64,000 nt of DNA from Escherichia phage vB_EcoM_ESCO32 (OM386658.1); one strand, 5' to 3'; shown: positions 9,429 through 50,836, numbered from the stretch's first letter. The notes: a model not told the origin generated them from the letters alone. Translations and numbers: made by a program.

Positions 9429-9526
9429 ATAAGACTAAAATCACTTAAAAAGAACCGCTAGAGTTTGAAGGAGAAAACCATGAGCGAAAAGAGAAATTTT
9501 CTCTAGCGATTCCATTTAAATAATCT

Positions 9527-9601
9527 TGGAGCGAGTAACAGGACTTGAACCTGCACCTGGAGGGTGGAAACCTCATATGCTACCATTAACACTATACCCG
9601 C
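9527..9601 (-). tRNA. tRNA-Gly(TCC)
   Basis: Acceptor GCGGGTA/TACTCGC, anticodon loop TTTCCAC, T-arm GCAGG-TTCAAGT-CCTGT, CCA. Confidence 0.55.
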
Positions 9602-9656
9602 TTAACAATATTACTCTAACATATTATTAGCCCCTTTGTCAAGAGGCTTTTAATAT

Positions 9657-9980
9657 TTATTTTAAAATAGTAGATGCACCACGTCTATTTAGATATGCAA
9701 CCGTAAAGCTCAAATCACCTATTTCTTCAGGTTCCCACTGACCTTCTAAGCCATAACAAGAACAATGATATGCGTGTACTTCATAAAACAAAGATGTTTT
9801 CATATCATAGAAATAAACGTGAGATTCGCCTTCATAATATGCACAATCATAAGTGGCAGAAAGAATTACAATGTTATCCTTATCTAACTCTACTTCATAA
9901 TATCTTTCAACATCTTCAATATCATCAAAACCATCGAAAACATTGATATTAAAATATTTCTCTAACTCTTTTTCTGTCAC
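9657..9980 (-). CDS. hypothetical protein (Cys/Tyr-rich)
   Basis: ORF track; N-terminus trimmed to GTG after AAAGGAG because longer ORF overlaps tRNA-Thr. Confidence 0.35.
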   Translation of the reverse strand: MTEKELEKYFNINVFDGFDDIEDVERYYEVELDKDNIVILSATYDCAYYEGESHVYFYDMKTSLFYEVHAYHCSCYGLEGQWEPEEIGDLSFTVAYLNRRGASTILK

Positions 9981-10002
9981 ATACACTCCTTTAGAGTTAA
10001 AT

Positions 10003-10076
10003 TGGTGCTCCCACAAGGACTCGAACCCTGATAAGTTGCTTACAAGGCAACCGTAATAGCCGTTATACGATAGGAG
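10003..10076 (-). tRNA. tRNA-Thr(TGT)
   Basis: Acceptor GCTCCTA/TGGGAGC, anticodon arm GTTGC-CTTGTAA-GCAAC, T-arm CAGGG-TTCGAGT-CCTTG, CCA. Confidence 0.6.
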
Positions 10077-10156
10077 CAAAATATTTGCTTGGTAGGATTT
10101 GATACCTACAATTCTAGAAAATTCTAGAGGTTTCTATTAACTCTACAAGCACTATT

Positions 10157-10241
10157 TGGCGATGGATCAAGGATTTGAACCTTGCTAGAACTTTCGTTCA
10201 CGGATTAACAGTCCGTCGCCCAACCACTAGGCCAATCCATC
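10157..10241 (-). tRNA. tRNA-Asn(GTT)-like with extra long variable arm (atypical)
   Basis: Anticodon arm ACGGA-CTGTTAA-TCCGT (Asn-like), then GAAC-GAAA-GTTC extra hairpin, T-arm CAAGG-TTCAAAT-CCTTG, acceptor GATGGAT/ATCCATC, CCA. Confidence 0.4.
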
Positions 10242-10248
10242 TTTAATT

Positions 10249-10335
10249 TGGTGCAGGTAGTTGGACTCGAACCAACGAAGCCCCGAAGGGCAGGAGATTT
10301 ACAGTCTCCAGCAATTGCCGCTATGCGATACCTAC
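10249..10335 (-). tRNA. tRNA-Tyr(GTA), type II
   Basis: Acceptor GTAGGTA/TACCTGC, anticodon arm GGAGA-CTGTAAA-TCTCC, long variable arm, T-arm GTTGG-TTCGAGT-CCAAC, CCA. Confidence 0.6.
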
Positions 10336-10340
10336 GTGTT

Positions 10341-10416
10341 TGGTACATCGTGAAGGATTCGAACCTTCGACCTTGGAGTTAAAAGCCCCTTGCTCTACCA
10401 ACTAAGCTAACGATGT
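10341..10416 (-). tRNA. tRNA-Lys(TTT)
   Basis: Acceptor ACATCGT/ACGATGT, D-arm GCTT-AGTTGGTA-GAGC, anticodon loop CTTTTAA, T-arm GAAGG-TTCGAAT-CCTTC, CCA. Confidence 0.65.
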
Positions 10417-10586
10417 ATAAATTATCTTTAAAATAGCCAGTGTTCGCACCACTGACTATGAGGTATCGGTAAGATGGTGGGGGCCATCTGCCGAAAGTCT
10501 ACTCTATTAAAGTAAGATGGTTGCAGCCATCCTTCCAAAAAGTTACACCAAGCAACTAAGAGTAACAAGCTACATTAAAGATAACT

Positions 10587-10672
10587 TGGCGGTAGATGTA
10601 GGACTTGAACCTACACGCCGTTTCCGACGACAGTTTAGCAAACTGTTGTGGCTACCATTTCACCAATCTACC
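10587..10672 (-). tRNA. tRNA-Ser(GCT), type II
   Basis: Acceptor GGTAGAT/ATCTACC, anticodon arm ACAGT-TTGCTAA-ACTGT, long variable arm, T-arm GTAGG-TTCAAGT-CCTAC, CCA. Confidence 0.6.
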
Positions 10673-12205: not shown

Positions 12206-13939
12206 TTAGTCAACCTGGATGGTTCCCATAGTACGAAGAACCTCTACATCAACACGGTTGCGGATATCAGTAAATGTTTCATCACGTCCTTCTACTTGTG
12301 GTGTAATAACCGTACCATCCCTGAAGATAACTTTTAACTCATTGTCTTCATCTTGGATATCTTTAAAAGAAAGATTATCCACAAGAGAAAGTTTACCGTT
12401 TGTATCCTTAACAACCTTAATAAAACCTTTTGCAGAGCGTTTACCAGGATCAGTTTTAGGCTCCTTACTTACCAAAATTTCGTGTTCACCGATGATACTA
12501 CCTGTTGCTTTAACAGCAAAACCAAAAGTATCTCGTGTATTGAACTGATAAGTATAACTACCAACACCAAATACAATATTGGAAGCTGCAAAACCTTTCT
12601 TCTTCAGTCGGCGTAAGATCTCGTGTTCTCGTTCAACAGTAATAGAATCACCATAAATCATACCGATGTGCTGATCAAGAACCTTGTAGCCTTTTCGGTT
12701 GATAGTACCACCAAACACTTCCCAAAGGATTTGAATAGAACCTACTGCTTCACAATAAGGAATCTCATAAGTTTCATCAATACAATCAGCAACACTGCAA
12801 TCCTGAAGAACATTGTAATACTTATTAACATCAGCCAAATGAACTACTTCAGTGGCTGTAGCAATACCATTATTTAAAAGGTCTTCATAGTTATCAAAAG
12901 ATTCAACATTGTATCCTGCAACAACTTTAACCGGATCTCCTGAATCTGGACGAATAACAAGACGACCATTTCGTGACATAATGGACTCTTTCAATTCTAC
13001 CAGAATGCGAGTCAAGACAGCCCAGTAATCATAAGAATCTGCTACATATGAACAAAAACCTTCTGGAACAATTTCTTCAATATAGCGGCGAAGAAACTCT
13101 TTCTCTGCTACATAACGAAGCCCATCAACATCATCTTTAAGATGTGGGAAATGTTTCTTCAGATCTTCAACAATAGCTCCAATGTTAGTCGTTGCTACTG
13201 AATGTTCTGTTGCCGGAATAGAACCTGCAACAAATTGATCATAATCAATACCATAGTAATCATGCACAGTTTCAATAGCCAGAATATTATCTGTTCCTGT
13301 GAAAGATGCCAAATGAGCGATACCACTCTTATAACCATCTTCGATATTGCTTAAGCCACGTAGACTAAAGTCATGACACTGGAAATTAACGTGATCAATG
13401 TTATCACACGTTGCCATCGCATACGCCATAGCGATACGCTTATACTGAAAAGCTGCTGTGGCATTAGTCATTGTCTTCCAAGTTTCATCTGACAAGAGTG
13501 TTTCCACATAGTTAGTTAACCAAAAGAATTTTTCTAAAGTGTTATGCACAGTAAACACAGGAACACCAATAGGACACAAAACACCTTCTGGCAGAGATCG
13601 AACTTCTAGCGGAAGATAACCTAAGTCGTGCAATTCTCCCCAACATTCAGCAGAAGGAGCAGAAGCACCTAATGCATTTTTAGACATACGGTAAAATTTA
13701 TTTACTGCTGCACTACGAGACATTTTAAAGAAGCTATCCCACATAGTTACAAGAGCATCAGTAACTGCTCGACGAATACCTAAAACAATTACACCACGTG
13801 CTTCACGATCTGCATAGTGTGCAAAGTTTTTATCATTACGAGGAGTTAAATTAGAGAAAATGAGTTTTGTATTTTGGTTGTACATCTGCTTGTGACCAGG
13901 CTTATACCAATCAGTAGCAAAAGGTGCAAAAATATTCAT
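12206..13939 (-). CDS. nicotinamide phosphoribosyltransferase-like enzyme (NAMPT family; Namat-type of phage NAD+ reconstitution pathway)
   Basis: 577 aa, NAMPT-like length and composition; immediately downstream of PRPP-synthetase-like gene, the arrangement described for phage NARP1. Confidence 0.75.
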   Translation of the reverse strand: MNIFAPFATDWYKPGHKQMYNQNTKLIFSNLTPRNDKNFAHYADREARGVIVLGIRRAVTDALVTMWDSFFKMSRSAAVNKFYRMSKNALGASAPSAECWGELHDLGYLPLEVRSLPEGVLCPIGVPVFTVHNTLEKFFWLTNYVETLLSDETWKTMTNATAAFQYKRIAMAYAMATCDNIDHVNFQCHDFSLRGLSNIEDGYKSGIAHLASFTGTDNILAIETVHDYYGIDYDQFVAGSIPATEHSVATTNIGAIVEDLKKHFPHLKDDVDGLRYVAEKEFLRRYIEEIVPEGFCSYVADSYDYWAVLTRILVELKESIMSRNGRLVIRPDSGDPVKVVAGYNVESFDNYEDLLNNGIATATEVVHLADVNKYYNVLQDCSVADCIDETYEIPYCEAVGSIQILWEVFGGTINRKGYKVLDQHIGMIYGDSITVEREHEILRRLKKKGFAASNIVFGVGSYTYQFNTRDTFGFAVKATGSIIGEHEILVSKEPKTDPGKRSAKGFIKVVKDTNGKLSLVDNLSFKDIQDEDNELKVIFRDGTVITPQVEGRDETFTDIRNRVDVEVLRTMGTIQVD

Positions 13940-14010: not shown

Positions 14011-14904
14011 TTAAAAATTCCACACGTATGGAGATACAATTTGTTGTTGCAAATCTGACTGATTCTTAACAAGAACACCGGAATCTTCTTGGATGTTATC
14101 TTCCCACACATTAAGAGAATGAATGCAGTCAAAGTGCTCACTTAACTCTTTAAGACCTTTAGAAAAGATACCGTGTGTAACATATAACTCAATCTTACCT
14201 GCGTTACGAGCACGTAGCACTTTAGCCAATTCAATAAAAGTTCTACCGCCGTCACAGATATCATCTACGATCATCAGGTTACGCTTATTGAAATCCTGTA
14301 CAGAAATGTCTGTACGAACAATAGCACCTGTTGCAGTATCTCTAACCTTCTCTGCACAGAACACATCTAAAGACATTTTCTTAGATAATTTAAATATTTT
14401 CTTAAGAGCACCACCATCAGGACTAACAAGAGCAAAATTCTCCATACGTAACTTCCACTTTAAAGTTTCGTAAGCAATCTCTTCTTGAGGTATTACACAG
14501 AGTCTGTCAAACACTGCTGGAGTAACATCACTATGTGGATCAGCAACGATAACACGTGAGAAATTTAATGAATTAATTATAGAAGCAAATGCTTTAACTC
14601 CGAATGCTTCCCCAGGTTCACACACTCTGTCTTGTCGTGCATATGGCACATACAACATGAGCAAATCAACACAATATGGTTTATGATATAGCATATTGTC
14701 CAATGCATTCTTAGTCATAACCAAAGTCATCAAGTCTTTAGCAGATCTTACTTCTAAAGAGAGTAAGATTCTGTCTGTAGCATGATTGAAACCTGATAGA
14801 TTCGTGTCTAGTTGAACATGTTGTTCTCCACCAGAGAACGTAAAGACTTTAACGTCTACATCAGTAACATAACAGTCAACACCATGTAGAATACTAACTT
14901 TCAT
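14011..14904 (-). CDS. ribose-phosphate pyrophosphokinase-like enzyme (Prs family; Adps-type of phage NAD+ reconstitution pathway)
   Basis: 297 aa; Prs-like motifs VSPDGGALKK and MIVDDICDGGRT (PRPP-binding loop); adjacent to NAMPT-like gene. Confidence 0.75.
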   Translation of the reverse strand: MKVSILHGVDCYVTDVDVKVFTFSGGEQHVQLDTNLSGFNHATDRILLSLEVRSAKDLMTLVMTKNALDNMLYHKPYCVDLLMLYVPYARQDRVCEPGEAFGVKAFASIINSLNFSRVIVADPHSDVTPAVFDRLCVIPQEEIAYETLKWKLRMENFALVSPDGGALKKIFKLSKKMSLDVFCAEKVRDTATGAIVRTDISVQDFNKRNLMIVDDICDGGRTFIELAKVLRARNAGKIELYVTHGIFSKGLKELSEHFDCIHSLNVWEDNIQEDSGVLVKNQSDLQQQIVSPYVWNF

Positions 14905-34770: not shown

Positions 34771-34968
34771 ATGATGCTAGATCAACTGATCAATGCTCCT
34801 CGCGTAACAGTAAGTCCAAAAACATTTGCATCACTTTTAGAAGATGCTAAAGAGGTTTATAACTTTACTGAAGAAGAGCTTCCTGTTCCTGTTGAAAAAG
34901 GTTCCAGATGGTTGTTTTATGAAGGTATTATTTTTACTGAAGGGAATAATTGGAAGGAGACTAAATGA
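34771..34968 (+). CDS. hypothetical protein
   Basis: Internal ATG after AAGGAGG. Confidence 0.3.
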   Translation: MMLDQLINAPRVTVSPKTFASLLEDAKEVYNFTEEELPVPVEKGSRWLFYEGIIFTEGNNWKETK

Positions 34969-35954
34969 AATACTTAGTAACAGGTGGTTTAGGCTTTATT
35001 GGAAGTGCGGTAGTTCGTTTCCTGGCTAAAAATACTAAGAACGATATTTACGTTATAGATAAATGGGGTTACGCTTCAGATCCTAGAAATTTAGCAGAAA
35101 CACCTAATGTAAAGTTTTGTCGTGTTGACTTGACAAATGCGCAGGTAACTGCTAAGATTGTGGCAGATGTTAATCCAGATTATATAATGCATCTTGCAGC
35201 AGAAAGTCACGTAGATAATTCAATAGCATCACCGAGTGTTTTTATAAATTCAAATATTGTTGGGACATTTAATCTTCTAGAAGCTGTTCGTTTAATGGGA
35301 GATAAATCAAATCTTAAAATGTTCCATCATATTTCAACAGATGAAGTGTATGGTGATCTGGAAGAAGGGGATTATCCGTTTACAGAACAGAATCCTTATA
35401 AGCCAAGTAGTCCATATGCTGCATCTAAGGCAGCAAGCGATCATTTGGTAAGAGCGTGGCATCGTACTTATGGTATTCCGACAGTTATAACAAATTGTTC
35501 AAATAATTTTGGAGCATATCATCATCCAGAAAAACTAATACCTAAAACGATAACAAATATCTTGATGCATAAACCAATCCCTGTTTATGGCAATGGTCTT
35601 CAAGTAAGAGATTGGTTATACGTTGACGATCACGCAGAAGCATTACACCTAGTAGTAACTAAAGGCAAATCTGGAGAAACATATAATATTGGGAGCAGAA
35701 ACCCTAGAACTAATATTGATGTAATCTATATGATTTGTGATTATATGGATGCGGTGTATCCATCTGAAACAGATGCTTGTAGCCTCATTGAGATGGTTAC
35801 AGATAGACCTGGACATGATTTAAGATATGAAGTGAATCCTTATAAGATTGAAAAGGAATTAGGGTGGAAAGCTAAAGGCACATTTGAAGAAAAACTTTAT
35901 TCAACCATTGATTGGTATGTAGATAACAAAGAGTGGTGGGAAAATAAAGTTTAA
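34965..35954 (+). CDS. rmlB: dTDP-glucose 4,6-dehydratase
   Basis: SDR fold: [10 protein letters not shown] Rossmann motif, YAASK catalytic YxxxK, typical length 329 aa. Confidence 0.85.
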
Positions 35955-35962
35955 GGAGGAGT

Positions 35963-36832
35963 ATGAAAGGTATTATCTTAGCAGGTGGTAGTGGAACAAG
36001 ACTTTACCCAGTTACTAAAGGGGTTAGTAAACAACTATTACCAATTTATGATAAGCCTATGATTTATTATCCGCTCTCTGTCCTAATGCTTTCTGGAATT
36101 AGGGAAATACTAATAATTACAACACCAGAAGATCAAATTAATTTTGTAAATCTTCTAGGTGATGGTTCTTCTTTTGGTATTTCCCTACAGTATGCAATAC
36201 AGGATAGCCCAAAAGGTTTAGCAGAAGCGTTTATTATTGGTGAGAACTTTATTGGTGAAGATTCTGTAGCACTTGTGCTAGGTGATAATTTATTCTTTGG
36301 TCAGAGTTTTGGTAGCATTTTAGATTCTGCTAAAGAACATATTGAAAAGAATGGTGGAGCTAATATTTTTGGGTATCACGTAAATGATCCTGAAAGATTT
36401 GGTGTTGTTGAGTTTGATTCTGAAGGTACAGTGGTGAGTATTGAAGAAAAACCAAAAGCACCAAAAAGCAACTACGCAATCACAGGCTTGTACTTTTACG
36501 ATAATTCTGTTATACAGAAAGCTAAGAGCGTTAAACCTTCTGCTAGAGGGGAGTTAGAGATTACAGATATAAATGAGATGTACTGGAAAGAAAAGACTTT
36601 ACGTGTCTGTAAACTAGGAAGAGGTTTCACTTGGCTGGATACAGGAACACATGAAAGTCTTATGGAAGCATCTCAATTTGTTCATGCAATAGAAAAGCAA
36701 CAAGGTATGAAGGTTGCATGCCTGGAAGAGATTGCTTTTAAAAATGAATGGATTACTTTAGACTCTGTAAAAAGTTCTGGAGAGGTTTTAAGTAAAACAG
36801 ACTACGGTAAGTATTTACTTAAATTAAAATAA
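35963..36832 (+). CDS. rmlA: glucose-1-phosphate thymidylyltransferase
   Basis: N-terminal [14 protein letters not shown] nucleotidyltransferase signature; 289 aa. Confidence 0.85.
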
Positions 36833-36844
36833 AGGGGGAATTAA

Positions 36845-37399
36845 ATGATTCAAGCAACAAAAATCGAAGATTTGTTGATCATTCAACCTGACGTTTACGG
36901 AGATGAACGTGGCTTTTTCTTAGAAAGTTTTAATCAGGCTTTATATGATCAATACATAGGTAAACAAAACTTTGTCCAAGATAACCATTCACGTTCTATT
37001 CGAGGAGTTCTACGTGGGCTTCATTTTCAAAAGAAAAACCCACAAGGGAAGTTAGTACGTTGTGTTCGTGGTGAAGTTTATGATGTTGCTGTAGATATTA
37101 GGGTTGGTAGTCCAACATTTGGAGAATGGGTAGGTGTTCTCTTATCTGAAAAGAATAAAACACAATTTTGGATTCCTCCTGGTTTCGCTCATGGCTTTGT
37201 TGTGATTAGTGACATTGCTGATTTTGAATATAAATGTACAGAATATTACGATCCGACTTCAGAGTGTAGTCTTGCGTGGAATGATCCAGATATCAATATT
37301 GATTGGGGTTTTGATTTAATCTTTAATGATATTAATTTTAAACCTATCTTGTCACAAAAAGATCAGGAAGCCAAAACACTAAAGGAGATCATATTTTGA
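36845..37399 (+). CDS. rmlC: dTDP-4-dehydrorhamnose 3,5-epimerase
   Basis: 184 aa cupin; DERGFFLE and HFQK motifs typical of RmlC. Confidence 0.8.
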   Translation: MIQATKIEDLLIIQPDVYGDERGFFLESFNQALYDQYIGKQNFVQDNHSRSIRGVLRGLHFQKKNPQGKLVRCVRGEVYDVAVDIRVGSPTFGEWVGVLLSEKNKTQFWIPPGFAHGFVVISDIADFEYKCTEYYDPTSECSLAWNDPDINIDWGFDLIFNDINFKPILSQKDQEAKTLKEIIF

Positions 37400-38226
37400 C
37401 AAAATTTTTAATCTTTGGTTCAAAAGGTCAATTAGGACAATCTTTGGCAAAAGTTGCACCAGAAGATGTTATTTTGATTGAAGCAAGTGATATAGACATT
37501 ACCAACTTTAAAGATGTTATGAATAGTCTTGTACAGCACGTGCCTGATGTTGTTGTGAATTGTGCGGCTTACACGGCAGTAGATAAAGCTGAAGAAGATG
37601 TTAACACCTGTATAAATGTTAATGCATACGGTGCAACAAACATTGCCAAAGCATGTAATGATTTACTGATACAGTTTGTACATATTTCAACAGACTATGT
37701 TTTTGATGGGCATGTTGCTGGCACAGAAGATAGTAAAACAAACCCCTTGAACACCTACGGTTACAGTAAACAATTAGGTGAAACTTTAGTACAAACAGTT
37801 TGTCCTACAGCACTTACTATCAGAACAGCTTCTGTTTATAGTGAATTTGGACATAACTTTTTGAAAACTATGTTGGAACGCTACAACGGTGGTCAAAAAG
37901 AATTTAATGTAGTATGTGATCATTTGTCGTGTCCTACTTATGCACCTGATCTTGCAGAAACAATTTTTAAACTTGTAAAAGATGGTGTAAATAGTAAAAT
38001 TGTACACTATGCAGGTGCAGATTATATTTCTTGGTATGATTTTGCACGAAAGATATTTCTTGTTATAGATTTATCTGTTACAGTTAATCCTGTATCTGCT
38101 TCAACCTATAATTCCAAAGCAGTCAGACCAGCAACATCTTATTTAAAAACAGATCCTACTTTAAATCCGCGAAGTGTTGATAGCGGTATTGTAAGAACTT
38201 TAACTATACTTTTAAACAAGGAGTGA
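37396..38226 (+). CDS. rmlD: dTDP-4-dehydrorhamnose reductase
   Basis: 276 aa SDR; GSKGQLG N-terminus, YGYSK catalytic motif; completes RmlB-A-C-D set. Confidence 0.75.
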   Translation: MTKFLIFGSKGQLGQSLAKVAPEDVILIEASDIDITNFKDVMNSLVQHVPDVVVNCAAYTAVDKAEEDVNTCINVNAYGATNIAKACNDLLIQFVHISTDYVFDGHVAGTEDSKTNPLNTYGYSKQLGETLVQTVCPTALTIRTASVYSEFGHNFLKTMLERYNGGQKEFNVVCDHLSCPTYAPDLAETIFKLVKDGVNSKIVHYAGADYISWYDFARKIFLVIDLSVTVNPVSASTYNSKAVRPATSYLKTDPTLNPRSVDSGIVRTLTILLNKE

Positions 38227-38228
38227 AA

Positions 38229-38489
38229 ATGAATTTTATTATCTACGGTAAACCAAATTGTCCTTTCTGCACTAACGCTAAGATTCTACTAGAACAGCGT
38301 GAACAGGATTTTAAATACCTTACCTTAGATGAAGACTATTCTTTAGATCAGATTCAGAATCTGGTTTTAGAGAAAACAGGTGTTCTACCACGCACATTTC
38401 CTCAGATTTTTGTGGAAGATGGTGAACAGCTAACCCACGTAGGAGGTTTTTCTGAACTACGTGAATTCATGGCTCAGATTGCGGAGTAA
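38229..38489 (+). CDS. glutaredoxin / NrdH-like redoxin
   Basis: CPFC active-site motif near N-terminus; 87 aa. Confidence 0.75.
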   Translation: MNFIIYGKPNCPFCTNAKILLEQREQDFKYLTLDEDYSLDQIQNLVLEKTGVLPRTFPQIFVEDGEQLTHVGGFSELREFMAQIAE

Positions 38490-41162: not shown

Positions 41163-41591
41163 ATGTTACCAGTACCTGTAATCTTTGTAGAAAAAGCCTA
41201 CTACTCTTTAGAACAAAATTGTAAAAGAGCTAAAAATTTTATTGAAAGTTTAGCAGAACAGCGTTACACTGTATCTAAAAAGGGATGGTTCAGAACTTCA
41301 CAATATTTAGTCAACCCTTTCGGAGAAGTTCGTGTGTTGTATGGCAACACAGAAAATATCTTAGAAAGAATGTTAGAACTAGACAGGATCTCCTCCTGTG
41401 ATTATCAACTGTTGAAATTTTACGATGTGTCAGAAAACGTTAAAAACTTTCTTGATGACTTATGTAAACGAAAAACAGAAGAAGATACAATACCAGTATC
41501 TATGGAAGAATTAACGTTCTTAAGAGATATTATGGTTTTTGAAGAAAACCCTGAAATCACAAAAGAGGAGATTTTAAGTAGTGGCAAATAA
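41163..41591 (+). CDS. hypothetical protein
   Basis: ORF track; RBS AGGAGG. Confidence 0.35.
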   Translation: MLPVPVIFVEKAYYSLEQNCKRAKNFIESLAEQRYTVSKKGWFRTSQYLVNPFGEVRVLYGNTENILERMLELDRISSCDYQLLKFYDVSENVKNFLDDLCKRKTEEDTIPVSMEELTFLRDIMVFEENPEITKEEILSSGK

Positions 41592-42090
41592 GTATGATCG
41601 TCCACCAACTGATTACTATCCTACTCCACAAAAATGTATAAATGCATTATTTAGTGTAATAGATTTTAATAACCTTAAAGAAGAAGGTTTTATTTTTGCA
41701 GAACCGTGTAAAGGCGCTGCTGCTGCAATTTATCAACATTTTCCAGAAGGATCAGAATATTGTGAGTTAGAAGAAGGGAAGGATTATTTTAACCACGAAT
41801 GGCATACTAAGCCGGATATTATAATCACAAATCCACCATTCAGACTTGCACTTGAGTTCTTGCAAAAGAGCTTAAAAGAAGCAGACGTTTGCATATACTT
41901 GTTGCGTCTTGGGTTCCTAGAGTCTATTAAACGAAGGGAATTCCATAAACAGAATCCACCAACAAATTTGATTGTTCTTTCTGAACGACCATCTTTTGTT
42001 GCAGGTGGTACTGATAAGACAGCATATGCTTGGTACGTCTACGACCCAAAAAACAGGCTGGGTTTAACTCAACCTTTCTATTTTGTTTAA
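41581..42090 (+). CDS. small amino-methyltransferase (DNA N6-adenine or N4-cytosine MTase, putative)
   Basis: DYYPTP near N-terminus, EPCKGAAAA (SAM-binding-like), IITNPPF catalytic (D/N)PP(Y/F) motif. Confidence 0.55.
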   Translation: MANKYDRPPTDYYPTPQKCINALFSVIDFNNLKEEGFIFAEPCKGAAAAIYQHFPEGSEYCELEEGKDYFNHEWHTKPDIIITNPPFRLALEFLQKSLKEADVCIYLLRLGFLESIKRREFHKQNPPTNLIVLSERPSFVAGGTDKTAYAWYVYDPKNRLGLTQPFYFV

Positions 42091-42594: not shown

Positions 42595-43257
42595 ATGAAG
42601 TTTGTACTGTATCATCGACTTTCTAAGAAGAAACAACAAGGCAACCAGTATGGTATAGAATCACAGGAAGCAGATATCCAACGCTTCCTGGATTCACAAG
42701 AAAATTATACTATTGTAGGTAGCTTTGCAGAGTTTTATTCTGGTAAAGGCGATTGGAAGCAACGTAGAGAGCTTGTAAAAGCTGTTAATCTTTGCAAAGA
42801 AACAGGTGCTACACTTGTTGTTGCTAAGGTTGACCGTCTGGGACGTAACACAGCTTCTGTTGCAACCTTGTTAGAGATGATTAATGTACGGATAGCAACT
42901 ATGCCCTCCGCTGAAAATATGATAATAAATATTTTAGCAGTTCTGGCAGAAGAAGAGGCTCGTGCAATATCTGATCGTGTTAAGAAGAGCCTTAAGGTAG
43001 CAAAAGCGAAGGGAACGCTTCTTGGTGCAGCAAACCCTAAATACAAAAGAACAGATTATACGAAAACGGAAGAAGCAAAACGCTCAAGAGAGTTTGCGCT
43101 TTCTTTAAAAGATTCTTTAGTTGCATACAGAGCTTGTAAAACGCCATATATGACGATTGCAAAGCATCTGAATGAATCAGGAAAGAGAACTATTCGTGGG
43201 AGTTTGTTCGATGCCAAAGCGGTACAACGTCTTTGTGCAAAATTGAATATTAAATAA
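42595..43257 (+). CDS. serine recombinase (resolvase/invertase family)
   Basis: N-terminal YHRLSKKKQ (catalytic Ser context), GATLVVAKVDRLGRN signature, E-helix region, C-terminal HTH-like tail. Confidence 0.6.
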   Translation: MKFVLYHRLSKKKQQGNQYGIESQEADIQRFLDSQENYTIVGSFAEFYSGKGDWKQRRELVKAVNLCKETGATLVVAKVDRLGRNTASVATLLEMINVRIATMPSAENMIINILAVLAEEEARAISDRVKKSLKVAKAKGTLLGAANPKYKRTDYTKTEEAKRSREFALSLKDSLVAYRACKTPYMTIAKHLNESGKRTIRGSLFDAKAVQRLCAKLNIK

Positions 43258-43481: not shown

Positions 43482-44054
43482 ATGCGTTTAGCTTTTAACG
43501 GGAAGATAAGCACAGCAAACATATTGTCAGCAGTAGGATTATTAGGTAAAAAATTCACACCTTTCAGTTTACCAGTTTGTGTAGATTTTGATCATGTGTT
43601 TGATATTAATAATCCTTCACGTTGTATCGCCAGAAGTAATATTGATAACCCAAGTGAAAATCTGTTTTATATTACTAAACCATCCCAAGCAATTTTGAAT
43701 CAATGGGAAGCAGGTCTGATTAAACCAGGTAAATATTTTGCATTACTACCTTGTAAATCATTGGCTATAGAGGACAGTCTAAACTATGCAAACAATCTTG
43801 TTGTTACAGCATTCATTGTCTCAGAAAAAGAAGAAACTGCGGCACTTGCAAACACTGTTAAATCTTTGTATGATGCTTTGGGTGTTACTTACACTACCTT
43901 CGTTTGTGAAGATATTCCACATTGCGTTGAATTCGTGGTGAATGGTGTAACTGTATGTCGTGTAGAAACAACTCAAGACGAAGACGTTTTTATTACTGTA
44001 GCCGATGTAATATCTGAACCTGTGTTTAGTTACGCAGTTTCATTAACACATTAA
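43482..44054 (+). CDS. hypothetical protein
   Basis: ORF track. Confidence 0.35.
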   Translation: MRLAFNGKISTANILSAVGLLGKKFTPFSLPVCVDFDHVFDINNPSRCIARSNIDNPSENLFYITKPSQAILNQWEAGLIKPGKYFALLPCKSLAIEDSLNYANNLVVTAFIVSEKEETAALANTVKSLYDALGVTYTTFVCEDIPHCVEFVVNGVTVCRVETTQDEDVFITVADVISEPVFSYAVSLTH

Positions 44055-44064: not shown

Positions 44065-44391
44065 ATGAAAATAACGACAGAACAGGCTTTAATAGACAAA
44101 GGAAGGGAAATCTTAGAAAGTCATTTGGAGGATATTCAAAGGACTCCAGGGTATCTCGGCTGGCGTATACAAGAAGCCGTCGATTTTCTACCCCGTAAAA
44201 ATAAAGAGATTGAAGTAAGATCTCTATTCCTCCTTGTTAAAGTAGATGGTGACGCTATATACAAAGATGTAGCGTCTCACATTGAACAAATAGAAGAAAA
44301 AGCCTACAAAGAATTTGCAGATCTTGTTGTAGAACATAATATAGAAGGTAAAGTTAATATCTTTATACTTATGGATTTTGAGGAGAGTTGA
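44065..44391 (+). CDS. hypothetical protein
   Basis: ORF track. Confidence 0.3.
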   Translation: MKITTEQALIDKGREILESHLEDIQRTPGYLGWRIQEAVDFLPRKNKEIEVRSLFLLVKVDGDAIYKDVASHIEQIEEKAYKEFADLVVEHNIEGKVNIFILMDFEES

Positions 44392-45134
44392 TGTTAGTAT
44401 ATCAAGAAATTAGTGTAAAAGATGATCAAGACCTGTTTATTATTGGTGATTTACATGGTTGCTTTGATTTGTATCAGAAGGGTGTTAATACTTTAGGTAT
44501 CCGAGATCAAGATGTTGTTGTATCTTTAGGAGATCTTACAGATCGCGGCAAGCAGAATTTTCGTTGTGTTGTTGAATTCACCAGAAAGCTAAATCGTTAT
44601 GGTATTCGTGGAAATCATGAAGATATGATGATTAAAGGGTTGCTAGAAGGTGATAGACGATATTACGAATGTTGGTTTCAGAACGGAGGCCATACAGTTC
44701 TAGACGAGTGTGGAGAAGAGGGTGCAACTGCTCTTGCTTTGATGCTAGAAGATTTACCTGTTGTACTTGTTGTCAATTATCGTAATATGAAACTAGGCTT
44801 TATTCACGGTGGGTATCCTTCAGTTTTGGAACATTTACCAGTAACAGAAGTTTTGCCATTTTGTTTGAATATGAATAAAGAGCAAGTTTCTCGATTCACA
44901 GAATCTTTAATGTGGGATCGTGATATGATAGATTGCGCACTTGAAGGGATTCTTCTTCCTAGGGTTTCAGGAGTAGATTATGTATTTCACGGGCATTCTT
45001 ATGTTCCTAAACCTGTAATTAGCAGTAATAGGGTATATATGGACACAGGATCTTGCTTCAATGGTAATTTAACCTTTGCATATTTTGATGATTCAAATAC
45101 GTTACAATTTTATTCTACTTTAGAGGAGGATTAA
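44388..45134 (+). CDS. Ser/Thr protein phosphatase (PPP-family metallophosphatase)
   Basis: GDLHGC, GDLTDRG, GNHE signature triad. Confidence 0.75.
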   Translation: MMLVYQEISVKDDQDLFIIGDLHGCFDLYQKGVNTLGIRDQDVVVSLGDLTDRGKQNFRCVVEFTRKLNRYGIRGNHEDMMIKGLLEGDRRYYECWFQNGGHTVLDECGEEGATALALMLEDLPVVLVVNYRNMKLGFIHGGYPSVLEHLPVTEVLPFCLNMNKEQVSRFTESLMWDRDMIDCALEGILLPRVSGVDYVFHGHSYVPKPVISSNRVYMDTGSCFNGNLTFAYFDDSNTLQFYSTLEED

Positions 45135-45454
45135 TGTATAAAATCACAATTAAAGAAACAGTAGGAGAACTTACGAAAGAAACTACTATTGAGACGGAAG
45201 ATGTTGAGTTAGTCCAAGAGCTTTTATTTCCAAAACCAGAAATAAAAGACAATGATGAACAGTTGGATGAAGATAATGAGACAGCAAGGGATAAATGGAA
45301 GAAACAATTAGCGGAGATTTGGAAAAAGCCTGAAGTAACTCCTCCATACGATCCTCGTAGACCTTATTATCCTTGGGAAATTGGAAGCCCTTGGTTTACG
45401 TACCCTATTACTCCAATTGTTAATCCAATTGTTACTCCCAATATTACTTGTTAA
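45134..45454 (+). CDS. hypothetical protein with Pro-rich C-terminus
   Basis: ORF track. Confidence 0.3.
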   Translation: MYKITIKETVGELTKETTIETEDVELVQELLFPKPEIKDNDEQLDEDNETARDKWKKQLAEIWKKPEVTPPYDPRRPYYPWEIGSPWFTYPITPIVNPIVTPNITC

Positions 45455-45464
45455 GGAGAAAACC

Positions 45465-46043
45465 ATGAGCGATTTATTCTACACAGGTGTTGGTAGCAGA
45501 GATATTACAGACGAAGAATGGGATACTATGGTATCTGTTGCAAAATGGTTATCTACATGGTTCATTTTGCGGTCTGGTAAAGCAGAAGGTGCAGATTCCG
45601 CATTTGAATGCGGGGTATATGATAGTGGGAACAATACGAAGAAAGAAATATACATCCCTTGGCTCTCGTTTAAAGGTAATGAGATAGAGGGAGAGGTTAT
45701 TGTTCTTGACAGACCAGATAGTGTAAACTATGCTTTAACCTTACAATATGCAAAAGAATTGCATCCAGCTTGGGACAGATTATCTCAAGGTGCTAAAAAA
45801 TTACATCAAAGAAATATCCACCAAGTTCTTGGAAGAGATCTTGAGAATCCAAAACCATCTTGTTTTCTTTTAGCTTGTGCAAATACAGATAAAAATGGAG
45901 ATCCTTTAGGTGGTACAAGAACAGCTTGGATGTTGGCTAAAAAGTTTAATGTCCCTTGTTTTAATATTCGAGGTAAAAGTAAAAAACAAATTTTCGAATT
46001 TATTAAGCCTATTTTAGAGGAGAATGGTCTTGTCCAGAAATAA
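45465..46043 (+). CDS. DprA/Smf-like SLOG-domain protein
   Basis: YTGVGSRDI...LRSGKAEGADSAFECG resembles DprA Rossmann motifs; ATG after AAGGAG. Confidence 0.45.
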   Translation: MSDLFYTGVGSRDITDEEWDTMVSVAKWLSTWFILRSGKAEGADSAFECGVYDSGNNTKKEIYIPWLSFKGNEIEGEVIVLDRPDSVNYALTLQYAKELHPAWDRLSQGAKKLHQRNIHQVLGRDLENPKPSCFLLACANTDKNGDPLGGTRTAWMLAKKFNVPCFNIRGKSKKQIFEFIKPILEENGLVQK

Positions 46044-46548
46044 TATAAGCGTCATTAAAGATAGTTTTATTGATGTAACAAACGATATTGTACCTACAAT
46101 ACAATATATAGTTGAGGCACAAGGTTTAAACTTTATACGTGATAAAGTTAAGATTGTTTTTCATAACACTCCAGGTTTTGTAATAGTAGATTCAACAAAA
46201 ACGATGTATCCTACAGATCTGATTACTTTAGACAAAAACTTAACACAAGAAGAAGTAGAAATTCTTAACCTCTATTGGTTAGGTTTTAAAAGATACGAGG
46301 ATACAGCTTTATCCCGAATGTCAACTATTTTAGCTAACATTCTGGTTCGGAAAATTTCTAAACTATGGGATGAAGAAAACCCAGATGAAATAGTTTTACA
46401 CTTTGCTAAACCGGAAGACGGGGCATATGATATAGACACATCTGAAATGGCTTACGGGTTTATTATTTCTGGTAATGTATTACAGATGGAATCTTTATTG
46501 TATGTTGAGACAGTAAAACACAATAACAACTACGAGGAGGTTGTATGA
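46024..46548 (+). CDS. hypothetical protein
   Basis: ORF track. Confidence 0.3.
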   Translation: MVLSRNNISVIKDSFIDVTNDIVPTIQYIVEAQGLNFIRDKVKIVFHNTPGFVIVDSTKTMYPTDLITLDKNLTQEEVEILNLYWLGFKRYEDTALSRMSTILANILVRKISKLWDEENPDEIVLHFAKPEDGAYDIDTSEMAYGFIISGNVLQMESLLYVETVKHNNNYEEVV

Positions 46549-46802
46549 AAGGTTTAGAGTTTAACTTTGTAGATGCGTGGGAAGGATGGGATGAACTAGG
46601 AGTAGGGGATTTATGTTTTTATGATGTTACCTTGAAGGAAGAATACAAACATCTAGCTCCTAGTGAAGATTGCGATGTGATTCTATCTATCCTATTAAGT
46701 CAGTCTATAGTGCAATTTGATTTTCTAAAAGGTAGTGAGTGTATTGAAAGTAAAGCATTCCGTTTAGAAGTTTCTCTTGGTGAAGAAGTTCCTGTAGAAT
46801 AA
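46545..46802 (+). CDS. hypothetical acidic protein
   Basis: ORF track. Confidence 0.3.
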   Translation: MKGLEFNFVDAWEGWDELGVGDLCFYDVTLKEEYKHLAPSEDCDVILSILLSQSIVQFDFLKGSECIESKAFRLEVSLGEEVPVE

Positions 46803-46805: not shown

Positions 46806-46830
46806 AAACCCGCTTCGGCGGGTTTTTTGT
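46806..46830 (+). terminator. rho-independent terminator (CCCGC-TTCG-GCGGG plus T6)
   Basis: Strong hairpin followed by TTTTTTG. Confidence 0.7.
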
Positions 46831-46858
46831 TGACAACACCAGTTTTTTCGAATAAACT
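46830..46858 (+). promoter_or_regulatory. sigma70-like promoter (TTGACA - 17 nt - TAAACT)
   Basis: Consensus -35 immediately after terminator; upstream of 46885 gene. Confidence 0.4.
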
Positions 46859-47297: not shown

Positions 47298-48287
47298 ATG
47301 AAAGTTTTAAGTCTTTTTGATGGTATGTCAGGAGGAATGCTTGCGCTAAAAAGTGCAGGTATTGAAGTAGATACATATTATGCTTCAGAATTAGACAAAT
47401 TCGCCATAGCTGAAAGCCAAGCAAATTTTCCAGATATTATTCAGTTAGGTGATGTTACAAAATGGAGAGAATGGGATATTCCGTGGGGAGAAATTGATCT
47501 TTTGTTAGGTGGTAGTCCGTGTCAAGGCTTCTCTTCTTCTGGTAAGGGTTTGAACTTTCAAGATCCGCGATCTAAGCTATTCTTCGAATATGTTGAGATT
47601 CTTGAACATATTAAAAAGTTTAACCCTAATGTTAAGTTCATGCTTGAAAACGTTAAGATGAAAGTGGAGTGGGAAAACGTGATCACAAGTTACTTAGGTG
47701 TTGATCCCGTATTCATTAACTCCGCAGATTTCACGGCACAAAATAGACAACGTTTATACTGGTGCAACTGGGAAATAAAACCTTGGGATATTACCAATGA
47801 AGTGTTGCAAGATATCATTGAAGATGATAGTATCGTAGACAGAGATAAGGCTTATTGCATAGATGCAAATTATGCCAAAGGTGGTAATATAGAACAGTAT
47901 TTTGAAAAGAGTCGCAGACAACTGGTTTTTTATCCGGCAGCAATATATGGGCGTAGAATTAATGAAAATGGTAAACGTAGTACATCTAAAACTGATCGTT
48001 TGGTACATTGTTTGGAAGTTCAGGACAGTGAAAAAACTCGTTGCCTCACGACTGTGCCTAAAGACGTACTATTAGCCTACATTCCACCTGGAAGATATCT
48101 AGATGCCTTTGAAAAATTGAGTGAAGGCGTACATTATAGAAAGTTAACGGTTAAAGAGTGTTGCCGCTTGCAAGGTGTGCCAGATGATTACTTTAAAGTG
48201 AGTAGTAACACACAAGCATATAAGATGTTAGGCAATGGTTGGACTATACCTGTCATTGCACATATTCTTAAATGTATGGAGGAATAA
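47298..48287 (+). CDS. DNA cytosine-5 methyltransferase
   Basis: Motif I LFDGMSGG, motif IV GGSPCQGFS (catalytic Cys), motif VI ENV. Confidence 0.8.
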   Translation: MKVLSLFDGMSGGMLALKSAGIEVDTYYASELDKFAIAESQANFPDIIQLGDVTKWREWDIPWGEIDLLLGGSPCQGFSSSGKGLNFQDPRSKLFFEYVEILEHIKKFNPNVKFMLENVKMKVEWENVITSYLGVDPVFINSADFTAQNRQRLYWCNWEIKPWDITNEVLQDIIEDDSIVDRDKAYCIDANYAKGGNIEQYFEKSRRQLVFYPAAIYGRRINENGKRSTSKTDRLVHCLEVQDSEKTRCLTTVPKDVLLAYIPPGRYLDAFEKLSEGVHYRKLTVKECCRLQGVPDDYFKVSSNTQAYKMLGNGWTIPVIAHILKCMEE

Positions 48288-48410: not shown

Positions 48411-49019
48411 ATGACTCAAAAAGTTGCATATCAAGTAGATCGTGAAGATGGTGAAGGTAGTGTTGTAGTTTTTGATACACATGGCCTTGCAGCAAGACGC
48501 AAAGGAGCTTGTCTACTGGACATTGGTGGTGAAGATGAATACTGCACTGTACGTAGAGTAAAAGAATTTGATCAATATGCTGAAAAAGGTTTTGTACCTG
48601 TGAAAGCACTATTAGAAGCTGGATGGTGGATACCTAGTGCACATGATTATGATATTTTGGAAGATACAGATGAATTCAACAGCGAGGATTTTGTTTTTTC
48701 TCTGGATGAAAAATGCGTTTGGAAAGACTGGGATGAAATGGAACGCCATGCTTATTTTATAAACGAAGCATTAGATCGTAAAACTTGGTTTGAAAATACA
48801 GTTAAAGCAGCGTATCCTCAATTTACTTTTACACAGTTTTGGGGTGGCCCACATCATATTACTCATACAGCATATTTCGAGTTCCCAGGTTCACGTTATA
48901 AAGGTACTGTTTATTGGGATTGGGACGAGGACAAAGAACCTTCTGCTCAAGACTTCCGTTGCTATGTTTGTCAAGGTGATCAAGAAGCCCTTGACAAGTA
49001 CCTTAAAAGTCTGGTATAA
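48411..49019 (+). CDS. hypothetical protein (Trp/acidic-rich)
   Basis: ORF track. Confidence 0.35.
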   Translation: MTQKVAYQVDREDGEGSVVVFDTHGLAARRKGACLLDIGGEDEYCTVRRVKEFDQYAEKGFVPVKALLEAGWWIPSAHDYDILEDTDEFNSEDFVFSLDEKCVWKDWDEMERHAYFINEALDRKTWFENTVKAAYPQFTFTQFWGGPHHITHTAYFEFPGSRYKGTVYWDWDEDKEPSAQDFRCYVCQGDQEALDKYLKSLV

Positions 49020-49035
49020 TCCGTAAAACTTAACC

Positions 49036-49063
49036 AAAGCCCCCAGGCAGGGGCTTTATTTGT
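49036..49063 (+). terminator. rho-independent terminator (GCCCC-loop-GGGGC plus T-tract)
   Basis: Hairpin followed by TTTATTTGT. Confidence 0.5.
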
Positions 49064-49074: not shown

Positions 49075-49605
49075 ATGGGTTTTGATGACATGTTATTATA
49101 TGAGGAGGCTTGTGTGAAAGAAGCTATGGCTTTACCAGTTTTATCTATTGATATTACAACAGTAGACACTTTTTCAGATTGTGAAACGTGTGGATCGTAT
49201 TCGTCTATTGTACATGAGGTTAGTGGGGATTTAGGCACTTACGAAGATGGAGATTATGCAAGTTGTTTAGGTGATAATCGAGATGGTGAAGTGGCGAATG
49301 TTGCAAACTGGATTGCTTCTAAGTTAAAAGAAAGAAATCGTCCGTTCCCTAATCTTCTTACACCAGAAGCTATGCTTAAAGCTGAACAAGAGATGTATGA
49401 TTATGGTTATAAAGTAGATTATGACTATAATGATCCTAAATATAAAAAATTGAGTGACAAGTATTGGGAACTAGCTAATGCTTATGATAAATACTACTCT
49501 ACAGAAAACATTGTTAAATTGTTTTTAGATTTTGGAGTAGAAATTAATTGGGATTTCGAAGAGGAAGAGCGTTACGACGCATCTTCTTGGGATGATGATT
49601 ACTAA
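49075..49605 (+). CDS. hypothetical acidic protein
   Basis: Internal ATG after GGAGAAT. Confidence 0.35.
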   Translation: MGFDDMLLYEEACVKEAMALPVLSIDITTVDTFSDCETCGSYSSIVHEVSGDLGTYEDGDYASCLGDNRDGEVANVANWIASKLKERNRPFPNLLTPEAMLKAEQEMYDYGYKVDYDYNDPKYKKLSDKYWELANAYDKYYSTENIVKLFLDFGVEINWDFEEEERYDASSWDDDY

Positions 49606-49616
49606 GAGGATATTGA

Positions 49617-50429
49617 ATGCGAAGAGTAATTTTTGTTAGTGGCGCAGGTTTAAGTGCAGACAGTGGGATTCGAACGTTCCGAACAGACACAGATAGTGGT
49701 CGTGCCTTATGGGAAGAATATGACTTAGAAGAGGTCTGCGATATTGGAGCTTTCCAAGCAGGTTATCGTGTGAGAACATCTCCAGATCTTCCAGTGGTCG
49801 GTGGTGTAGACGAGAACGGTATGGACTTGTATGCCAAAACACACGAATTTTATAACAAAAGACGTGTTGAGCTTAAAGATGTACAACCTAATGCTGCACA
49901 TATTCAAATAGCAAGGTGGTTTAAGGAATATCCTAACCAAGTAGTAAACTTGACAACAAACGTTGATGACCTACTAGAGCGAGCAGGTGTAGACAGGGAT
50001 TCTGTTATTCACGTGCACGGATATCTTCCTGAAGTAGTTTACCGTATGCATCCTGGAGATTACAAAACACTGGTAGACATTGGTTACAATAGTATAAACA
50101 TAGATGATTATAACTGGGTGAAGCCTAATGTTGTATTTTTTGGTGAGGCTGCACCTTTGTATGCAGATATGGCTCACTTGTTTGATACTTTGACCATGCA
50201 AGATTTGGTTGTTGTAGTAGGATGTTCAAACCAAGTTATCAATTTTAATTGGGAATTATTCCCTGCACTTAATATGGGTACAAAAATGATCGTTGTTAAC
50301 CCAGGAATTAATTACGAAGAAACTCTTCTTTACGAAGATAGAGGAGTCTTTGTTTATAGAGAAAAGGCAGCAGATGCTTTTAGCAATCCTGCTTTCATAA
50401 AAATGATAGAAGATCATTTGACTAAGTAA
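49617..50429 (+). CDS. SIR2-family (sirtuin-like) NAD+-dependent enzyme lacking zinc-ribbon module
   Basis: GAGLSADSGIRTFR NAD-binding signature, QPNAAHIQIA, TTNVDDLL, catalytic HVHG, VVFFGE, VVVGCS; no CxxC pairs. Confidence 0.7.
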   Translation: MRRVIFVSGAGLSADSGIRTFRTDTDSGRALWEEYDLEEVCDIGAFQAGYRVRTSPDLPVVGGVDENGMDLYAKTHEFYNKRRVELKDVQPNAAHIQIARWFKEYPNQVVNLTTNVDDLLERAGVDRDSVIHVHGYLPEVVYRMHPGDYKTLVDIGYNSINIDDYNWVKPNVVFFGEAAPLYADMAHLFDTLTMQDLVVVVGCSNQVINFNWELFPALNMGTKMIVVNPGINYEETLLYEDRGVFVYREKAADAFSNPAFIKMIEDHLTK

Positions 50430-50797: not shown

Positions 50798-50836
50798 AAA
50801 AGCCCCTAGAAGCGATTCTAGGGGCTTTATTTTAGT
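50798..50836 (+). terminator. long hairpin (CCCCTAGA-loop-TCTAGGGG) plus T-tract at convergent block boundary
   Basis: Perfect 8-bp arms followed by CTTTATTTTA; lies between convergent plus and minus blocks. Confidence 0.55.

Follow-up and report, generated by a model that had tools for sequence, protein, structure and literature searches.

The 64,000-nucleotide stretch of DNA from Escherichia phage vB_EcoM_ESCO32 (OM386658.1) that was analysed here, called the window in the following, encodes a lambda-type PPP-family phosphatase and a small stand-alone protein with a SLOG domain. Our data suggest that the SLOG protein is DprA-like in fold and pocket yet falls outside the DprA family, and that fusions and gene neighbourhoods tie its family to the processing of ADP-ribose and nicotinamide adenine dinucleotide (NAD+). 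We favour, with a probability of roughly one half, a counter-defence role of this protein in an NAD+/ADP-ribose conflict with the host, in which it would bind or process an ADP-ribose-type ligand. Loading of RecA is not favoured. The pipeline label 'DprA-like DNA recombination-mediator protein' is probably misleading for this family, as its fusions and neighbours argue for an NAD+/ADP-ribose arms race. The genes concerned are as follows.

44391..45134, + strand: lambda-PP/NinI-like PPP-family metallophosphatase, 247 amino acids (aa), orthologue of phi92 gp049
45134..45454, + strand: gp048-like small acidic protein, 106 aa, isoelectric point (pI) 4.6, matched by PHROG 15301 at 1e-51
45465..46043, + strand: stand-alone SLOG-domain protein of DprA-like type, 192 aa, with 100% identity to phi92 gp047 (tblastn)

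The original prediction, made by a model from the DNA alone, had described a lambda-phosphatase-like gene lying two genes upstream of a DprA/Smf-like SLOG gene. Both genes were found on the plus strand where it had put them, all the motifs it quoted (GDLHGC, GDLTDRG, GNHE, GVGSRD and SGKAEGADSAF) could be located, and the spacing is right, as one 106-aa gene (45134-45454) intervenes. The window comes from a phi92-like E. coli myovirus (Justusliebigvirus, Stephanstirmvirinae), and a 4-kb stretch of it around the two genes shares 98-99% identity with 55 phage records, among them Escherichia phages arall, inny, phi92 and EmilieFrey (BASEL Bas61). The identities of both genes are secure, yet public genomes already carry annotations for them: the matching records name the phosphatase 'NinI-like serine-threonine phosphatase' or 'putative phosphatase', and the SLOG gene 'DprA-like DNA recombination-mediator protein' or 'putative DprA-like recombination protein'.

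The SLOG protein and its relation to DprA

Read mechanically, the SLOG protein's open reading frame (ORF) opens at TTG 45381. The true start is ATG 45465 (MSDLFYTGVGSRD), which follows a strong ribosome-binding site (AAGGAG) and matches the annotation of relatives, and the gene ends at 46043. It holds the pocket motifs that are invariant in the family.

45486..45929, + strand: SLOG pocket motifs (GVGSRD 45486-45503, SGKAEGADSAF 45573-45605, IPW 45654-45662, HPAW 45762-45773, LHQRNIHQVLG 45801-45833, GGTRTAW 45909-45929)

In the protein, GVGSRD corresponds to residues 8-13 and SGKAEGADSAF to residues 37-47. Across 57 homologues G10, R12, S37, G38, A40, G42, D44, H114, R116, N117, Q120, G123, S132, G149, G150 and T151 are invariant, and the glycine-rich ligand loops that follow strands 1, 2 and 4 (GVGSR, SGKAEGAD and GGTRT) are invariant or almost so.

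The SLOG protein has no match to Pfam, NCBIfam or PADLOC models. A sequence search of the PDB with the single sequence gave no match, and with a profile only marginal matches to the N-terminal part of DprA appeared (E ~0.1). PHROG 768, labelled 'DprA-like', matches at 9e-60. An AlphaFold2 model computed from the 57-sequence alignment (pLDDT 96.9) shows a beta-alpha repeat topology and a Rossmannoid three-layer alpha/beta arrangement. When this model was compared with the PDB by Foldseek, the DprA proteins of H. pylori and S. pneumoniae came out on top (4ljk E 5e-6 and TM 0.60; range of TM 0.54-0.60), followed by the MoCo carrier protein, the ThsA SLOG domain, ShosA, LOG and YpsA, all at a probability of 1.0; the match to YpsA (2nx2; E 3e-3) is weaker than that to DprA. 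The SLOG assignment of the original prediction is thus backed by a profile as well as by several SLOG families in the structure search, and the profile and structure matches of this protein and of the phosphatase are far above chance. Judged by the model, the protein appears to be a divergent stand-alone SLOG domain whose nearest solved relative is the Rossmann domain of DprA.

An alignment with MAFFT showed that six DprA motifs are shared from end to end: GSR, SGxAxGxD, [YI]P, xxRN, [SG]G[ST]xxT and F-x-[IL]. GVGSR and SGKAEGAD align with VVGSR and SGLA[KR]GID of the Sp, Ec and Rp DprA proteins, and hhalign against five DprA Rossmann domains gave a probability of 79% over the first 46 columns. 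The G-S/T-R loop, the SGxAxGxD loop and the RN helix are common to the phage protein and the solved DprA structures (4ljk, 3uqz, 3maj), whereas the phage family has a conserved helical insert of its own, HPAW ... LHxRNxxQVLG, and a genomic context of NAD+ and ADP-ribose instead of transformation.

The window protein has no match to PF02481 (DprA) at E <= 0.1, where the gathering threshold is 29.6 bits. In 45 of the 57 homologues the match is sub-threshold (best E 3.6e-6), and homologues scanned individually scored 15.6-20.8 bits. The SAM and winged-helix (DML1) domains are absent, and the Rossmann domain fills all 192 aa. In SpDprA, H260 and L269 are reported to be dimerisation residues, and E235, D243 and E265 to contact RecA; we confirmed these positions in the 3uqz chain. 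In the MAFFT alignment E235 corresponds to Met156 of the phage protein and D243 to Pro164, and E265 alone is met by a Glu, near the C-terminus. H260 is replaced by Lys, and the phage protein stops before L269. Since there is no PF02481 match, the protein consists of a single domain and the residues for dimerisation and RecA contact are mostly replaced or gone, it is not a member of the DprA family. As far as the alignments tell, the branch stems from the DprA Rossmann domain and has lost the parts of DprA for dimerisation and RecA binding. The DprA/Smf-like character claimed by the original prediction therefore stands for fold and motifs (PHROG 768, Foldseek, MAFFT) and falls for family membership (no PF02481 match, one 192-aa domain).

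Other families of the same fold were compared as well. No member among the 57 matches LOG (PF03641), and where the LOG motif PGGxGTxxE has its catalytic Glu, the phage protein has Met156 (LGGTRTAWM). YAcAr (PF10686) is matched neither by the window protein nor by any of the 57 homologues. ShosA, the DprA-like antitoxin of ShosTA (8zva), has the DprA-type Rossmann fold in common with the phage protein (Foldseek E 4e-4), whereas its SAM domain, its C-terminal helix needed for the dimer and its RecA binding (PMC12961424) are features that the phage protein does not have. Origin as a ShosA mimic was rejected, as ShosA ranks under DprA in Foldseek and the domains required in ShosA are absent; and since PADLOC and NCBIfam models do not match, neither a ShosA mimic nor an origin from a defence system finds support.

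Fusions and neighbourhoods of the SLOG family

The family is among the larger uncharacterised families of phages and plasmids. An exhaustive profile search retrieved 6030 clusters at 50% identity, 2087 of them at E <= 1e-30, and by tblastn 1508 of 50,697 phage records (~3%) carry a member. Carriers are found among Vequintavirinae, PAK_P1/JG004-like, T5-like, T4-like (Krischvirus), N4-like and jumbo phages. On 29 plasmids the gene lies amid ssb, SRAP, RdgC, ImmA/IrrE and SocA genes.

Fusions were surveyed in the 150 best representatives, and the SLOG part of the fusions listed in this paragraph matches the family profile at E 1e-50 to 1e-68. The only recognisable partner domains in this set are NADAR (P0138, P0207, P0121 and P0122) and DUF4326 (P0194, P0198 and P0218); a further DUF4326 fusion, P0072, came from the first homologue search. 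About ten other multi-domain members carry extensions without a Pfam match. A fusion to Macro occurs in a plasmid protein of 415 aa (locus L171, 5824-7068). Two of the NADAR fusions, P0121 and P0122, are giant metagenomic polyproteins of ~1480 aa. Besides the SLOG of this family, each chain contains two others, of the YAcAr and LDcluster4 types, and ends in NADAR, so that three different SLOG domains and an ADP-ribosyl hydrolase are joined.

For the neighbourhoods, 80 IMG/VR loci from ~40 lineages were fetched with 10 kb on either side. Macro genes are present in 10 of the 80 loci, in six lineages, and always within 2.8 kb of the SLOG gene. With an even spread of such genes across the +/-10 kb, a distance of at most 2.8 kb in six of six lineages would have a low probability (~5e-4), but as the lineages are related, this figure makes the case look stronger than it is. 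Both loci with a NADAR gene have it within 1.1 kb. Of the 15 loci that carry a Nampt-like gene, 12 have it within 3.6 kb, usually together with a PRS-like gene, and seven lineages have one within 5 kb. In a T5-like phage the SLOG gene stands immediately upstream of the NAD-dependent ligase gene. It is these fusions to NADAR, DUF4326 and Macro, together with the Macro, NADAR and PRS-like/Nampt-like neighbours in other elements, that lead us to favour a role in ADP-ribose and NAD+ biology.

The window itself contains the following NAD-related genes.

12206..13939, - strand: Nampt-like gene (PHROG 448 at 1e-187; phmmer 1e-142 to a PAK_P1-like protein)
14011..14904, - strand: PRS-like gene (PHROG 619 at 5e-91; phmmer 3e-53 to a PAK_P1-like protein)
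49617..50429, + strand: SIR2 (sirtuin) gene (PHROG 2162 at 2.5e-105; PF02146 at 1.3e-22 on the orthologue in locus L008)

The SIR2 gene is situated downstream of the SLOG gene, at a distance of 3.6 kb, and it lies within 6 kb of it in 12 phi92-like loci. The PHROGs of the PRS-like and Nampt-like genes are those of the pair that flanks the Macro-SLOG genes in PAK_P1-like Pseudomonas phages. The NARP1 proteins Adps and Namat are homologues of PRS and Nampt, and by its matches the pair in the window looks like such a phage NAD+ reconstitution pair. Phage NARP pathways rebuild NAD+ (PMC13464706).

A proposed role in the conflict over NAD+ and ADP-ribose

It has been predicted that viral SLOG domains act on ADP-ribose derivatives (Iyer, Burroughs, Anantharaman & Aravind 2022, PMC9503650). 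The pattern described there, with stand-alone phage SLOGs, fusions to Macro, NADAR and DUF4326 and NAD salvage neighbours, is the same as the one found for this family. In contrast, most viral SLOGs were put in a YpsA-like clade in that study, while this family is nearest to DprA; neither phi92 nor DprA is mentioned in the paper. The partner domains have functions of their own. NADAR and Macro erase ADP-ribose from DNA (PMC11257639, PMC11125620), and a phage NADAR, AdfN, neutralises DarT1 by stripping ADP-ribose from DNA (PMC11257639).

The invariant residues of the SLOG protein (GSR, SGxAxGxD, RN and GGT) would be located on the loops and the helix that correspond to the ligand pocket of DprA and LOG. 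Such a pocket could hold a moiety of adenine-nucleotide or ADP-ribose type, as a free ligand or linked to single-stranded DNA (ssDNA), whether the protein binds it only or also cleaves it. The SLOG protein may then be part of the phage's counter-measures to host immunity that consumes NAD+ or ADP-ribosylates its targets, with erasers and salvage enzymes as probable partners, namely the Macro, NADAR, DUF4326 and PRS-like/Nampt-like proteins that are fused to it or adjoin it in other elements. In the original prediction SLOG domains were described as binding nucleotides or ssDNA. The genomic context speaks for NAD+/ADP-ribose biology and not for ssDNA and recombination. Because the gene is present in the tractable E. 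coli phages phi92 and BASEL Bas61, the hypothesis is directly testable.

Several observations weigh against a role in ADP-ribose biology. The window SLOG protein is itself unfused, and phmmer searches with seed sequences found no Macro, NADAR or DUF4326 gene in the 64-kb window; of the NAD-related genes of this phage, SIR2 comes nearest, at 3.6 kb, and the PRS-like/Nampt-like pair is 30 kb off. Across the lineages the commonest neighbour is PhoH, followed by a ClpP-like gene, and both are silent on ADP-ribose. Related groups of myoviruses account for many of the 80 loci, so the neighbour counts are not fully independent. Moreover, the phage protein retains every motif of the DprA ssDNA pocket and may bind DNA, and the sole phage 'Smf/DprA' protein that has been probed experimentally, ORF83 of phage DruSM1, with its link to Avs type III, belongs to another SLOG family, YAcAr.

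In a knockout library of DruSM1, deletion of ORF83 lowered plating on Avs type III hosts (Ojima et al. 2024, 10.1101/2024.04.14.589459), and a later preprint predicted that ORF83 binds AMP via R89, N90, T112 and D114 (10.1101/2025.06.06.658234). ORF83 and gp80 of phage Seurat are small stand-alone phage SLOGs like gp047, with G-x-R, xGxAxGxD, RN and GG..T motifs equivalent to those of gp047. Homologues of ORF83 are fused to DUF4326, and it is the sole phage protein of its kind with a knockout phenotype. In contrast to gp047, proteins of this type have ~130 aa and no helical insert. Seurat gp80 matches PF10686 YAcAr at 5e-18 and reaches only 9.8 bits against the gp047 family profile. We therefore rejected the idea of carrying the anti-Avs type III phenotype of ORF83 over to gp047, since the ORF83 type is a YAcAr SLOG and a different family. 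What the phenotype does show is that a small SLOG of a phage can be important in evading immunity. The HIDEN-SEQ preprint mentions neither the phosphatase nor the SLOG gene. As a side observation, Seurat gp80 (locus L089, 3656-4048, 130 aa) has R89, N90, T112 and D114 exactly at the positions reported for ORF83; by sequence it is presumably the orthologue of ORF83, and its annotation as 'GTP-binding domain' looks wrong.

Other possible roles of the SLOG protein

The protein might instead be a minimal DprA-like recombination mediator that binds ssDNA, or an accessory single-stranded DNA-binding protein, and aid the loading of a recombinase. That DprA is the nearest solved fold and that the ssDNA-pocket motifs (G-S-R, SGxAxGxD, RN and [SG]G[ST]xxT) are retained would suit this explanation. 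In a T5-like phage the SLOG gene is part of a replication module with genes for a helicase, a DNA-binding protein and the ligase, and plasmid copies occur near ssb, RdgC and SRAP genes. A function as extra ssDNA binders has been suggested for the DprA/Smf copies of jumbo phages (Iyer et al. 2021, PMC7824862), and ShosA offers an example of a DprA-like protein that binds ssDNA and RecA in a defence setting (PMC12961424). We nevertheless regard this role as unlikely. The Pfam DprA match is absent in the window protein and sub-threshold in homologues, and SAM and winged-helix domains are lacking. Two of the three RecA-contact positions of SpDprA are occupied by Met156 and Pro164, the H260 position is a Lys and L269 would be beyond the end of the protein. 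The family has a pI of ~7 and is not basic. Recurrent fusions involve domains of the ADP-ribose hydrolase type and not recombination proteins.

A second alternative, which we hold to be somewhat less probable still, is a LOG-like N-glycosidase (phosphoribohydrolase) that cleaves AMP, ADP-ribose, cyclic ADP-ribose or a related nucleotide. This could either destroy an immune signal or free ribose-5-phosphate for the rebuilding of NAD+ by the PRS-like and Nampt-like enzymes, and the SLOG gene does adjoin PRS-like and Nampt-like genes in about seven lineages. Structures of LOG and PpnN/YgdH are among the Foldseek matches. R116-N117 of the phage protein stands at the RN/RK position of the catalytic Arg of LOG, following the analysis of ORF83 in the EVADES preprint (10.1101/2025.06.06.658234), and the invariant polar residues D44, H114, R116, N117, Q120 and T151 exceed the needs of a simple binder. 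Viral SLOGs have also been proposed to cleave the ribosyl-adenine bond (Iyer et al. 2022, PMC9503650). However, the position of the catalytic Glu is taken by Met156 (GGTRTAWM), PF03641 is matched by 0 of 57 members, and DprA and the ThsA SLOG have the same fold, which often serves ligand binding only.

The phosphatase

The ORF of the phosphatase opens at TTG 44388; its likely start is ATG 44391, after a strong GAGGAGAG ribosome-binding site and as in the annotation of relatives. It carries the signature motifs of the PPP family.

44445..44621, + strand: PPP signature motifs (GDLHGC 44445-44462, GDLTDRG 44529-44549, GNHE 44610-44621)

Numbered from the ATG, these are residues 19-24, 47-53 and 74-77, and they align with GDLHGC, GDLVDRG and GNHE of lambda phosphatase (lambda PP). 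The lambda-phosphatase-like call of the original prediction was confirmed: lambda PP (1g5b) matches residues 4-231 of the phage enzyme at E 2e-29, with every catalytic residue in place. Pfam Metallophos (PF00149) matches with 51.1 bits against a cut-off of 21.5 (2.9e-13), and PHROG 246, 'NinI-like serine-threonine phosphatase', at 1e-75. Nine residues, D20, H22, D48, R52, N75, H76, H139, R177 and H202, are invariant across 11 homologues of 25-75% identity, so that the metal ligands are retained in the alignment throughout. In lambda PP numbering we take these nine to be D20, H22, D49, R53, N75, H76, H139, R162 and H186. H139, R177 and H202 of the phage enzyme align with the downstream ligand regions of lambda PP (H139, R162, H186). 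As all metal and phosphate ligands are conserved, the phosphatase is intact, and it can be assigned from its sequence to the lambda-PP/NinI-type binuclear-metal PPP enzymes with a complete active site.

Compared with lambda NinI (1g5b), the alignment spans the full length, with GDxHG, GDxxDRG, GNHE, both downstream His ligands and the Arg residues that bind phosphate in common, whereas the phage enzyme is ~26 residues longer, with an insertion at ~147-170, between the third and fourth ligand regions. The NCBIfam models of E. coli PrpA and PrpB match at 5e-27 and 1e-23. These scores are far beneath the equivalog cut-offs (95 vs 326 bits), so that the enzyme belongs to a phage branch and is not an orthologue. 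The enzyme is predicted most likely to dephosphorylate Ser, Thr or Tyr of proteins during infection. It is an ordinary phosphatase. The reversal of host kinase-based defence had been suggested for it; in the literature we found no support for NinI-type phosphatases in counter-defence.

The small gene between phosphatase and SLOG gene has a start that overlaps the phosphatase stop (TAATG); in the phi92-like and L053 lineages (L053 being the metagenomic locus described below) it always comes immediately before the SLOG gene. In the gp048-like protein, a conserved N-terminal part with a beta-hairpin and a helix is followed by a variable linker or tail rich in proline, and the chain closes with the invariant residues P-[FYM]-x-[IV]-T-C. 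It has no Pfam match, PHROG 15301 being the sole family match. A single-sequence AlphaFold2 model (pLDDT 62) was unusable and was kept out of the fold search.

Synteny of the phosphatase and SLOG genes

Phosphatase, gp048 and SLOG genes follow one another in this order in the phi92-like lineage, even where the phosphatase drops to 41% identity. Outside this lineage, a phosphatase gene occurs within ~2 kb of the SLOG gene only in L053, L051 and L081; in L081 a 67-aa gene separates the two, and the arrangement in L051 is similar. Loci were surveyed from both sides. Among 80 phosphatase loci, the SLOG gene is present in eight loci of phi92-like and L053 type only, and the remaining ~70, mostly lambdoid prophages, with a T5-like phage, have no SLOG gene within 10 kb. 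Conversely, 62 of the 68 non-phi92 SLOG loci have no phosphatase gene within 10 kb, and in the T5-like phage DU_PP_V the two genes are ~45 kb apart. A general linkage is ruled out by this reciprocal survey. As the SLOG gene is near a phosphatase gene in only a few lineages, their adjacency is lineage synteny, and the pairing highlighted by the original prediction has no meaning beyond that.

In L053 (IMG/VR 3300031372_000019, 7970-10633) we observed the order phosphatase, stand-alone DUF4326 (PF14216, 5.5e-20), two small genes, gp048-like gene and SLOG gene, with PhoH and proteasome-like genes upstream and an N6-methyltransferase gene downstream. The DUF4326 gene between phosphatase and SLOG leaves a small door open for a functional link.

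Such a link would mean that phosphatase, gp048 and SLOG form one module, in which the phosphatase acts on an ADP-ribose derivative, at its ribose-linked or cyclic phosphate, and not on proteins. The PPP enzyme would then fill the place that the phosphatase-like DUF4326 domain has in SLOG fusions; DUF4326 has been proposed to be a rhodanese-phosphatase-type domain for the ribose phosphates of ADP-ribose (PMC9503650). The gene order that persists while the phosphatase diverges to 41% identity, the similar arrangements in L081 and L051 and the DUF4326 gene in L053 would agree with a module, as would the translationally packed genes and their common terminator. Lambda PP reportedly hydrolyses 2',3'-cyclic nucleotides. 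We consider the module clearly improbable, given the ~70 phosphatase loci outside the lineage and the 62 of 68 non-phi92 SLOG loci in which the partner is missing within 10 kb, and the ~45 kb between the genes in DU_PP_V. Tight packing is usual in phages, and the phosphatase is nearest to protein phosphatases (lambda PP, PrpA/PrpB). Even more improbable is its elaboration into a counter-defence module in which the SLOG protein captures an ADP-ribose-derived signal or ADP-ribosyl-DNA adduct, the phosphatase strips a ribose-linked or cyclic phosphate and the resulting ADP-ribose feeds the PRS-like/Nampt-like pair; if true, a lambda-type 'protein phosphatase' would be a nucleotide-signal-processing enzyme, and the PHROG 768 family would gain an anti-immune function.

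Genomic surroundings

The phosphatase and the SLOG protein are encoded by two separate accessory genes in a tightly packed, co-directional middle-gene block of a virulent phage. The rest of the block and its end comprise the following features.

46024..46548, + strand: small gene after the SLOG gene, no assigned function
46545..46802, + strand: second small gene, no assigned function
46806..46825, + strand: intrinsic-terminator-like hairpin (8 bp, 5 GC pairs, T-run), end of the co-directional block from the phosphatase to gp045
46830..46858: promoter-like site after the terminator-like hairpin

The two small genes are covered by PHROG 8569 and PHROG 4991, have no Pfam match and are syntenic in the phi92-like lineage. 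The SLOG gene and the gene that follows it overlap by 20 nt, and the genes are translationally packed.

The block is bracketed by an N6-adenine methyltransferase-like gene (41581-42090, +) and a Dcm-like C5 cytosine methyltransferase gene (47298-48287, +). A serine-recombinase-like gene of 220 aa (42595-43257, +) is present in this virulent phage. Two short genes of ~180-190 aa, at 43482-44054 (+) and ~49077-49607 (+), are labelled 'putative aminoacyl-tRNA synthetase' in relatives. They match PHROG 4806, 'histidyl tRNA synthetase', at 4e-60, have no Pfam match and are much too small for a synthetase; the second was placed only by synteny with bas61_0187. Strong terminator hairpins, some of them bidirectional, at 46806-46825, 49036-49057 and 50799-50828 mark unit boundaries near the switch of transcription direction at ~50 kb. 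At 48991-49020 (+), just ahead of a GC-rich hairpin, the sequence agrees perfectly with the sigma-70 consensus, with TTGACA and TATAAT separated by 18 nt and TG upstream. Finally, an rmlABCD-like dTDP-rhamnose gene set at ~34960-38230 (+), placed solely from the EmilieFrey annotation and synteny (bas61_0211-0214), lies in a nucleotide-metabolism block.

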